Source: Escherichia coli (GTDB taxonomy: Bacteria; Pseudomonadota; Gammaproteobacteria; Enterobacterales; Enterobacteriaceae). From it: DNA of 64,000 bases. Below are positions 1 through 60,343 of this stretch, piece after piece (position 1 is the stretch's first letter; each line of letters starts with the position of its first letter). Under the pieces are notes generated by a model, which was not told where the DNA came from, did no database searches, and saw only the letters and a list, made by a program, of their open reading frames with translations. Made by a program: the position numbers and the translations under genes. The DNA is taken from NCBI RefSeq assembly GCF_044647545.1, contig NZ_CP172818.1; one strand, 5' to 3'.

Positions 1-449
<449 letters not shown>

Positions 450-454
450 CTACC

Positions 455-736
<282 letters not shown>

Positions 737-749
737 TTATCCTCTAAAA

Positions 750-3145
<2,396 letters not shown>

Positions 3146-3165
3146 TCAATCGCTCAATGACCTGA

Positions 3166-3648
<483 letters not shown>

Positions 3649-3654
3649 CCGCGC

Positions 3655-3660
3655 ATTATA
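3655..3660 (-). promoter_or_regulatory. Candidate -10 hexamer of the S10 operon promoter
   Basis: Minus strand reads TATAAT followed by a GC-rich discriminator (gcgcggg); no recognisable -35 lies upstream, where the sequence is an anomalous GC-rich tract. Confidence 0.45.
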
Positions 3661-3848
3661 CTGGGGGGGCGGGCCGCGCCGCGCGGGGGCGCTTGTTCGC
3701 CCTCTCTGCACGGCTGGTGTCCGGCAGTTCGGCCCGTCTCTGGTCGGTTTTTCTGGGTGAAAGGTGGCGGCCGCGCGATTTACGCGTGCCCGCCCCCCCC
3801 CCCTTACTCTGGTCAGGTCTTTTGTTCTATCATGGGAGTTTGGGCTAA

Positions 3849-4170
3849 TCGATTCCCCTGATCGGTTTAGCCGATGCGTTATGGGGGGCGATTATTGGTT
3901 ACGGCACATTCGCTGTCATTTACTGGGGGTATCGCATTCTGCGTCATAAAGAAGGATTAGGCTATGGTGATGTGAAGTTTCTCGCCGCCCCCTTGGTGCC
4001 TGGCATACATCCTATCGACTGGTTTTCCTTGCTGCCTTCATTGCTTGCCGAGCCGTAGTTCATTGGTCTGCTCATGAGAGGAAAAGAGTCATTAAAAAAT
4101 CTCCCGCTGCCGTTGTGGGAGCATCTTCTGCGCGAACTGACGGGTTTCGTTGTAGGCTGGGATAGTTATG
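3849..4170 (+). pseudogene. gspO: Decayed 3' remnant of a prepilin peptidase (GspO/PilD family) gene; no start codon, frameshifted
   Basis: Open frame 3849..4058 translates ...LADALWGAIIGYGTFAVIYWGYRILRHKEGLGYGDVKFLAA, containing the conserved GxGDVKxLAA motif; the expected following LGAW is encoded 2 nt out of frame after a C5 run at 3987..3991. Confidence 0.55.
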
Positions 4171-4181
4171 CTGGCAGGCCG

Positions 4182-4658
4182 TTAATCTTTAACTTTTATT
4201 TGTGATTGCAGGTAATTTTGTAGACCGATTTTACCGATGAGATCCAGCTCAGTTTCGAGCCAGTCAATATGACCTTCTTCATCGGCAAGGATCTCGATCA
4301 TCATATCACGGCTAACATAGTCATGAACGCTGTCGGCATACGCGATAGCCTCACGGAGATCCTTAGCGCCTTCCAGTTCTAATCGCAGGTCGGATTGCAG
4401 CATCTCCTCGACATCTTCACCAATCCCCAGTTTGCCTAAATCCTGTAAGTTGGGGATTCCTTCTAAAAACAAAATACGCTCGATATATTTATCAGCGTGT
4501 TTCATCTCATCGATAGATTCATGGTATTCGACGTCATTGAGACGCATCAGGCCCCAGTTTTTAAACATCCGGGCATGGAGAAAATACTGATTGATTGCGA
4601 CAAGCTCATTTCCCAATAGTTTATTGAGATAATTTATGATTTTAACATCACCTTTCAT
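4182..4658 (-). CDS. bfr: Bacterioferritin
   Basis: ORF contains [37 protein letters not shown]...; start set at the internal Met for a 158-aa product. Confidence 0.9.
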
Positions 4659-4729
4659 TTTTAGTCCCTCCGCTTCCACTATTAGAGCGTAGATGGGGCT
4701 AGCGGGATGTCAAAAAATAAGCGTGGGCT

Positions 4730-4924
4730 TCAGGCAATCTCTTTAAATTCTGGCATCTGCATCAACTCGTCCTGCATCACTTCGCGCGCGGCGCGAATGC
4801 ACTTACCGCATTGATTTCCCACAGGAATAAACTTACGCAATTGTTGGAAAGATTGCGGATGAAACTGACGTACTGCCTGGCGAATTTTTTTGTCACTTAC
4901 ACCATTACACAAACAAACGTACAT
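4730..4924 (-). CDS. bfd: Bacterioferritin-associated ferredoxin
   Basis: 64 aa ORF MYVCLCNGVSDKKIRQAVRQ... with Cys pattern of a 2Fe-2S BFD-like domain. Confidence 0.9.
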   Translation of the reverse strand: MYVCLCNGVSDKKIRQAVRQFHPQSFQQLRKFIPVGNQCGKCIRAAREVMQDELMQMPEFKEIA

Positions 4925-5034
4925 GATTGCTCCCGTTCAAATTCTGCGCAAAGTGTAAATGAGAATGGTTATGATTACAATAGCACAATTTTATTTGCGC
5001 CATAGTTCAGCGAGGAACGACAAAACGGGCAAAA

Positions 5035-23892: not shown

Positions 23893-25131
<1,239 letters not shown>

Positions 25132-25201
25132 TTACGCATAAACCAATGTGAAATTATAATCACAAAATATGCATAAAAAATCACTTAATAGCAATCAGAA
25201 A

Positions 25202-25765
25202 TCAGCGATGCAGGAAATTAGCCAGCAGTTGATGTCCTTGTTCGCTGAGAATACTTTCTGGATGGAACTGCACACCTTCCAGATCCCACTGGCGATGGCG
25301 AATCCCCATAATCTCGCGGGTTTCGCTCCAGGCCGTCACTTCAAAGCACGCTGGTAATGAGTTAGGTTCCACCACCAGCGAATGGTAGCGTGTCACGGTA
25401 AGTGGATTTGCCAGCCCCCGAAATACGCCCTCACCGCTATGTGTAATCGGCGAGGTTTTGCCGTGCATGACCTTTGCGGCGCGCACAACTTTGCCACCAA
25501 ATGCCTGCGCCATTGCCTGATGACCGAGGCAAACGCCAAGAATCGGCAAGCACCCGACATAGTGGCGAATAACGTCAAGGGAGATCCCGGCTTCATCTGG
25601 CGTACAGGGGCCGGGTGAGATGACAATTTTTTGTGGTTTAAGGGCGTCGATATCCGCCAGCGTCAACGCATCGTTGCGCTTAACCAGCACATCCGCCCCC
25701 AGTTCACAAAAGTACTGGTAGAGGTTCCAGGTAAAAGAATCGTAGTTATCAATAAGCAGGATCAT
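25202..25765 (-). CDS. pabA: Aminodeoxychorismate synthase glutamine amidotransferase subunit
   Basis: 187 aa [31 protein letters not shown]... with GVCLGHQ catalytic Cys motif. Confidence 0.92.
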
Positions 25766-34554: not shown

Positions 34555-34619
34555 GTCTCTGACAGAAATTGGCTGATGCTGATTTATTGCCTGCGCCCTC
34601 GGGTTTCCGGGGTCCAGAA

Positions 34620-60257: not shown

Positions 60258-60286
60258 GCCTGATGCGCTGCGCTTACCAGGCCTAT
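60258..60286. repeat. REP element
   Basis: gcctgatgcgctgcgcttaccaggcctat matches the REP consensus family GCCTGATGCG...AGGCCTAC. Confidence 0.6.
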
Positions 60287-60343
60287 GAAATAAATCGCAA
60301 GTTATTTTGGTCAGATACAGCGTCGTATCCGTTAAAAGCGTTG

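Follow-up and report, generated by a model that had tools for sequence, protein, structure and literature searches.

A 142-nt segment of strikingly high GC content lies one base upstream of the -10 hexamer of the S10 (rpsJ) promoter in the stretch of Escherichia coli DNA analysed here (64,000 nt of contig NZ_CP172818.1, hereafter the window), which raises the question of what this tract is and whether it belongs to the chromosome at all. We compared it with complete E. coli genomes, with natural S10 promoters and with shuffled sequence. From these sequence comparisons, and not from direct observation, we infer that the tract is very probably a reconstruction artefact, a corrupted rendering of normal E. 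coli sequence, and that it is almost certainly not a functional or biological element. The features of the locus are listed in Table 1.

The tract contained 55 G, 51 C, 29 T and 7 A residues, so that A made up 5% of the bases. Among all 142-nt segments of the window it ranked highest in GC content (74.6%; maximum elsewhere, 68.3%; mean, 52.1%, sd 5.3). The initial annotation had described a minus-strand TATAAT at 3655-3660, a G7 run at 3663-3669 and an 11-nt C run at 3793-3803, and had called runs of this length unusual; the hexamer and both runs were present as described, and the C11 run was the sole homopolymer of at least 9 nt, of any base, within the 64 kb, in a tract that is itself a GC outlier. 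The NotI and MluI sites that it had reported were likewise found, with NotI (GCGGCCGC) occupying 3767-3774 and thus beginning one base before the reported 3768, and MluI (ACGCGT) occupying 3782-3787, 8 nt away. NotI occurs once in the window, and MluI is common there (23 sites). In dinucleotide shuffles the tract showed both sites together in 0.085% of cases, a frequency that refers to two sites picked post hoc. The end point of 3848 had been set too far: the tract proper stops at 3803, positions 3804-3832 are unaltered wild-type hopD, and positions 3833-3862 form a separate insertion-rich patch.

Table 1. Features of the S10-hopD locus, further altered patches in the window, and segments specific to the ECONIH1 layout
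Feature	Position or extent	Strand	Basis or remark
rpsJ (ribosomal protein S10), first gene of the S10 operon, intact	3166..3477	-	ORF; 100% identity to rpsJ of ECONIH1 and FDAARGOS_497
S10 leader and core promoter to -13, with -10 TATAAT at 3655-3660	3478..3661	-	Wild type; 100% identical to ECONIH1 and K-12
Anomalous GC-rich tract	3662..3803	.	142 nt, 74.6% GC
Left arm of the degenerate fold-back, containing G7	3663..3703	.	Inverted, more degraded copy of the right arm
Right arm, garbled hopD copy, codons ~16-35 (ECONIH1 stretch 4516-4567)	3740..3803	+	Colinearity and local alignment
Rest of the hopD-like prepilin peptidase gene	3804..4168	+	Perfect-identity blocks broken by indel bursts
bfr (bacterioferritin), intact	4182..4658	-	Comparison with ECONIH1
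Second garbled patch, bfd-tufA intergenic	5015..5029	.	26 mostly A/T bases missing relative to ECONIH1
Third garbled patch, after yhfL	34587..34613	.	Five single A/T dropouts in the terminator hairpin and a 37-nt deletion
ECONIH1-specific segment 1	hopD region		Replaces gsp
ECONIH1-specific segment 2	73 nt		Replaces chiA
ECONIH1-specific segment 3	25 nt		Replaces the frl operon
ECONIH1-specific segment 4	68 nt; window about 60270-60337		Simple insertion, hslO-yhgE intergenic; intact in the window, absent in K-12

The promoter was compared with a set of 21 natural sequences, comprising 19 contigs of species-representative Enterobacterales with the same core promoter and leader start, together with the two E. 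coli layouts. The results showed that TATAATGCGCGGGCTTGTC was kept across the 19 species contigs, and that the -10 TATAAT of the window stood at the conserved distance from the leader in a context identical to that of all 21 natural sequences. Judging from this hexamer, S10 transcription would start near 3648; the S10 leader is given as ~172 nt in the older literature, consistent with the -10 position here. A -35 TTGC, a 16-nt spacer and a G at -13 were each found in 21/21 natural sequences. The wild-type promoter, as in ECONIH1, consists of GCTTGCGT, 16 nt and TATAAT, and the K-12 layout, with a different spacer and different upstream sequence, has the same GCTTGCGT at an equal distance. In the window, the corresponding position (16-nt spacer) reads GCGGCG, which matches TTGACA at 2 of 6 bases, bearing out the earlier remark that a -35 hexamer is missing. 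The 70 nt upstream had a GC content of 79% in the window versus 43-56% across all natural sequences; no extended -10 TG was found in the window promoter (CAGTATAAT), which also lacked the upstream A/T-rich block around -43 to -56. A scan for consensus promoters was unusable at this locus, as it missed the wild-type S10 promoter itself because TTGCGT matches TTGACA at 3/6 positions only.

Several side observations were made on these promoters and on the records retrieved with them. An A/T-rich block, TTAATTT(C/A)TA(A/C)AC, is common to many natural S10 promoters at about -43 to -56, and in ECONIH1, where this region upstream of the -35 spans 4290-4330 of the stretch, a terminator-like hairpin lies just upstream. 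The appearance of the two together is that of an upstream promoter element combined with a hairpin that insulates the promoter from bfr read-through. An S10 promoter and gspB flank of the E. coli K-12 type, with one base deleted, were seen around 1119-1137 of the 12.4-kb contig NZ_JAUFQN010000012.1 ('Flavobacterium paronense CECT 8460' tig00000213), which has the look of E. coli contamination in a species-representative Flavobacterium assembly. In the K-12 derivative NZ_CP152467.1 (retrieved stretch 24795-25262), rpsG (S7) is annotated as an incomplete pseudogene missing its C-terminus, an annotation that could stem from the S7 length variant known in K-12 or from engineering of the strain.

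Next to the promoter, the gene order of the window is rpsJ, hopD-like prepilin peptidase, bfr, bfd, tufA. Among the 5,426 complete E. coli genomes, about 2,250 share this gsp-less order, and all others have the K-12 layout with the gsp cluster and chiA. The closest genomes were ST648-type strains such as ECONIH1, to which the window was 100.000% identical over 1-3661 and 34614-64000; between these two blocks there were 4 mismatches only and 38 gap openings. All differences were confined to 3662-4168, 4662, 5015-5029 and 34587-34613, leaving ~63 kb identical. The 142-nt tract occupies the place of 299 nt in ECONIH1 and its relatives, and these 299 nt comprise the S10 -35, the A/T-rich block, the terminator-like hairpin, and the beginning of the hopD-like gene from its start codon to about codon 35. 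The wild-type promoter region was kept in all 2,253 E. coli genomes with the rpsJ-hopD-bfr layout. The initial annotation had named the same tract in related high-quality genomes as a finding that would refute it; the tract was present in 0/5,426 complete E. coli genomes, with the near-identical ST648 genomes carrying the normal 299 nt. It had also suggested a deletion junction of natural origin in which gsp sequence had decayed. The locus is indeed the gsp/hopD junction, but the natural gsp-less junction is well conserved, unlike the tract.

The alterations continue into hopD. Indel bursts were located at 3833-3862, 3988-3989, 4011-4016, 4038-4061, 4100-4102, 4115-4140 and 4168, introducing many frameshifts and stops. 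The part of the gene corresponding to 3804-4168 measures 358 nt in all 2,255 E. coli genomes that have the gene, and substitutions are the sole differences among them; none of the 2,255 shares the indels of the window. Motifs conserved in the peptidase family, such as PFGPFLA, were destroyed (PLPFGPFLATAG became LPLPLWEHLLRELTG), and the direction of the hopD changes is from wild type to window. At 3833-3862, 15 bases were inserted in about 30 nt, equivalent to 5 additional codons in a loop that has equal length in wild-type HopD and K-12 GspO. A separate proposal, that the extra bases restore an ancestral sequence, was rejected: the 'GLID' likeness to GspO is out of frame, and the wild-type HopD loop already has the GspO length. 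Beyond hopD, one base was deleted at 4662, in the spacer between the ribosome-binding site and the ATG of bfr. As an observation on the natural sequences, the bfr-bfd block of the ST648/ECONIH1 type (window about 4182-4924) has 77% identity to K-12 between flanks of 98-99.9%, and this deeply divergent allele appears to travel with the gsp-less, hopD-containing layout.

The tract also has an internal structure. Its right arm was colinear with wild-type hopD (longest-common-subsequence z = 4.1-4.8, reached by 0/500 shuffles) and aligned locally with it at a score of 35, compared with 17.8 +/- 2.8 for shuffled sequence (0/500 reaching). In this alignment the window row is TTTTTCTGGG-TG-AAAG-GTGGC..G..GCC.GCGCGATTTACGCGTGCCCG and the wild-type row is TTTTTCTGGGATGCAAAGCATGGCTTGTTACCTGACAGATTTA--CGTGCCCG. 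A/T bases were lost or had turned into G/C, the C run was inserted ahead of TTACTCTGG, and the MluI site was created by a CG insertion within recognisable hopD sequence. The left arm matched the reverse complement of 3755-3800 with a score of 35 versus 20.1 +/- 3.7 (0/500 shuffles reaching); applied to the left part of the tract, the longest-common-subsequence test was uninformative, as the statistic saturates at such unequal lengths. The two arms were 76% complementary, and they include a perfect 12-bp inverted repeat, GGGGGGGCGGGC/GCCCGCCCCCCC, at 3663-3674 and 3788-3799, in which the G run pairs with the C run. As DNA, the tract folds with unusual stability (z = -3.4). On these alignments, the tract is a degenerate fold-back, with both arms degraded copies of one local sequence, which explains the perfect 12-bp repeat and the stable fold.

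To find the tract elsewhere, we searched genome, metagenome, plasmid and phage sequences. Exact-pattern scans found neither a 23-mer of the tract among 100,044 species-representative genomes nor a 28-mer in metagenome contigs. With blastn, no tract match was obtained in plasmids or phages at E <= 1, and the matches to E. coli genomes fell solely on the intact hopD flank of the query, none on the tract. A second copy in the window was sought, with only chance-level matches. The products of nine ORFs across the region were absent (0/9) from 15 billion proteins, and no known RNA family was found over 3300-4300. No match to FRT, loxP, pKD P1/P2, I-SceI, M13, T7, universal primer or adapter motifs was detected in the tract region.

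Two further places in the window are altered in a similar manner. The patch between bfd and tufA sits in the segment that stands in for chiA of K-12-type genomes, and the patch after yhfL lies at the junction occupied there by the frl operon; the intrinsic terminator after yhfL is destroyed in the window. Compared with E. coli genomes, both patches, like the missing base at 4662, were seen in the window only. Alignment of ECONIH1 with K-12 over the same 64-kb stretch revealed four ECONIH1-specific segments, amounting to about 1.3% of the stretch, and the garbled patches lie within or next to those three of the four that stand in place of K-12 islands (gsp, chiA and frl). In three cases, identity stops or resumes exactly at the K-12 homology boundary (3661|3662, 5193|5194 and 34819|34820 in ECONIH1-stretch coordinates). 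The fourth segment, which may be a small repeat element, is ungarbled. Across all patches the changes were clustered, indels greatly outnumbered substitutions, and A/T was lost and G/C gained. Other dispensable genes in the window, and intergenic regions far more AT-rich than these, were unaltered.

The S10 operon is essential, and its leader-mediated control is well studied (PMC10578931). If the tract were real, the operon deprived of its -35 and upstream A/T block would be this 11-gene unit. One reading that accepts such a loss is a strain-specific complex mutation, in which template switching or fold-back repair produced a ~230-bp deletion with an inverted duplication where S10 and hopD meet, followed by decay; the S10 operon would then depend on the orphan -10 or on transcripts reading through from bfd-bfr. 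The fold-back architecture of the tract fits such an event, bfr and bfd lie upstream on the S10-operon strand so that read-through is conceivable, and hopD is probably dispensable. However, template switching copies exactly, and the arms here are degraded relative to both the wild type and each other (76% complementarity). The mutation would also have to be accompanied by about 20 more indel events in 370 bp of hopD and by the garbling of two distant intergenic patches in a sequence with otherwise no difference over ~63 kb, and an essential 11-gene operon would lose an invariant -35 together with its A/T block. We regard this mutation as very unlikely. Switching by a natural phase-variable (contingency) homopolymer, which would turn S10 or hopD on and off through slipped-strand mispairing, can draw on a G7 in the promoter spacer region and a C11 in the 5' region of hopD, both of a kind prone to slippage. 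No homopolymer was found at this site in any related E. coli genome, and hence there is no length variation; on/off switching of an essential ribosomal-protein operon is implausible, and hopD is destroyed by many further frameshifts. The tract was found in 0/5,426 E. coli genomes, and contingency switching, which takes up the slippage-prone tract suggested in the initial annotation, is scarcely credible.

Two further readings bring in outside DNA. An engineered scar or synthetic promoter replacement, for example a cloning remnant with NotI and MluI, would agree with a lone NotI site 8 nt from MluI (joint occurrence in 0.085% of shuffles) and with a replacement that begins exactly at the edge of the core promoter. 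Yet MluI arises by a CG insertion in degraded hopD, and the hopD indel bursts and the changes at 4662, 5015 and 34587 are left unexplained. The surrounding backbone belongs to a clinical ST648 isolate; no FRT, loxP, pKD primer, I-SceI, universal primer or adapter sequence and no plasmid match were found, and the scar option raised at the outset, for which no scar, vector or adapter sequence turned up, is extremely unlikely. Had a small mobile element, or foreign high-GC DNA, bounded by 12-bp inverted repeats entered the chromosome ahead of the S10 promoter, one would expect the perfect inverted repeat at both ends and a GC content far above the host level, as the tract shows. But 299 bp were replaced, which is no simple insertion, there is no target-site duplication (flanks ...TATACT / CCCCTTACTC), the right arm derives from local hopD, and no copy exists in the window, E. 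coli, the species-representative genomes, metagenomes, plasmids or phages. Such an insertion hardly merits belief.

The sequencing or assembly artefact, also among the options first listed, is strongly favoured: the tract is unique to one record, and near-identical genomes are normal at the locus. When a clone is otherwise identical, natural divergence shows up as substitutions and does not bring indels in bursts. Dozens of indels with almost no substitutions, and a degraded fold-back, in a clone identical over ~63 kb do not represent natural accumulation, all the less so as the changes keep to three junction segments. The patches coincide with structural breakpoints, which suggests either a step that depended on a reference or on homology or the filling of gaps from poor data; the G/C runs and the fold-back suggest a junction of good flanks through junk. 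The course proposed here is that strain-specific segments were rebuilt from poor-quality data during assembly or finishing, perhaps in a reference- or homology-guided step or by filling gaps with error-rich reads, and that two good flanks were then joined via low-complexity, self-folding G/C junk. The artefact reading is qualified by several points: exact coincidence with homology boundaries would also be expected for a genuine third haplotype, one ECONIH1-specific segment (68 nt, hslO-yhgE) is ungarbled, and NotI and MluI seldom occur together in shuffles of the tract. Two specific forms of error were considered and rejected. Coverage dropout in AT-rich DNA is at odds with the wild-type versions of the garbled segments, which have 45-50% GC, and with the many intact intergenic stretches of 12-30% GC. 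A chimera with K-12 reference alleles is contradicted by the variants of the window, which match K-12 at no patch. Most likely, the promoter on the real chromosome is the ordinary one (TTGCGT, 16 nt, TATAAT), and the hopD-like gene there is intact.

The locus is biologically ordinary, and the finding is of value for quality control: the record is probably corrupted at every place where the structure of this strain departs from that of a K-12-type genome. Such corruption would yield a false hopD pseudogene, false losses of the S10 promoter and the yhfL terminator, and false strain-specific sequence, and these false calls would reach analyses based on genome comparison or machine learning. A real tract would mean that an essential ribosomal-protein operon can run without a universally conserved -35, a surprising outcome against which the evidence stands strongly. 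In that event, a clinical ST648 strain would have lost the S10 -35, A/T block and hairpin by fold-back rearrangement, its operon would run from an orphan -10 or by iron-regulated bfd-bfr read-through, and G7 and C11 would make expression prone to slippage; we hold this chain of events to be highly improbable.

Set beside known systems, the tract resembles each in part. Contingency loci with poly-G/C promoter tracts are known from Neisseria, Haemophilus and Campylobacter, and the tract shares with them long G/C runs beside or inside promoter elements; it differs in that there is no population length variation, relatives have no homologous tract, and the controlled gene is essential. Relative to the canonical Enterobacterales S10 promoter, the leader, start region, -10 TATAAT and G at -13 of the window are identical, whereas the -35 TTGC(G/T/A)N at its 16-nt spacing, the A/T block and the hairpin have given way to sequence of 79% GC. 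The natural gsp-less junction of ECONIH1 and FDAARGOS_497 occupies the same locus with 100% identical flanks and the same hopD blocks; over window 3400-4300, however, it is 138 nt longer, has about 45% GC, contains an intact 155-aa gene and is found in 2,253 genomes. Assembly and consensus artefacts include error-rich consensus of low support, fold-back (palindromic) chimeras, and homopolymer junk joining contig ends. The tract departs from these in that no adapter was found and the flanks are perfect right to the boundary, and it is like them in its indel bursts, near-absence of A, G/C runs, degenerate fold-back, uniqueness to a single record and confinement to segments without a reference counterpart.
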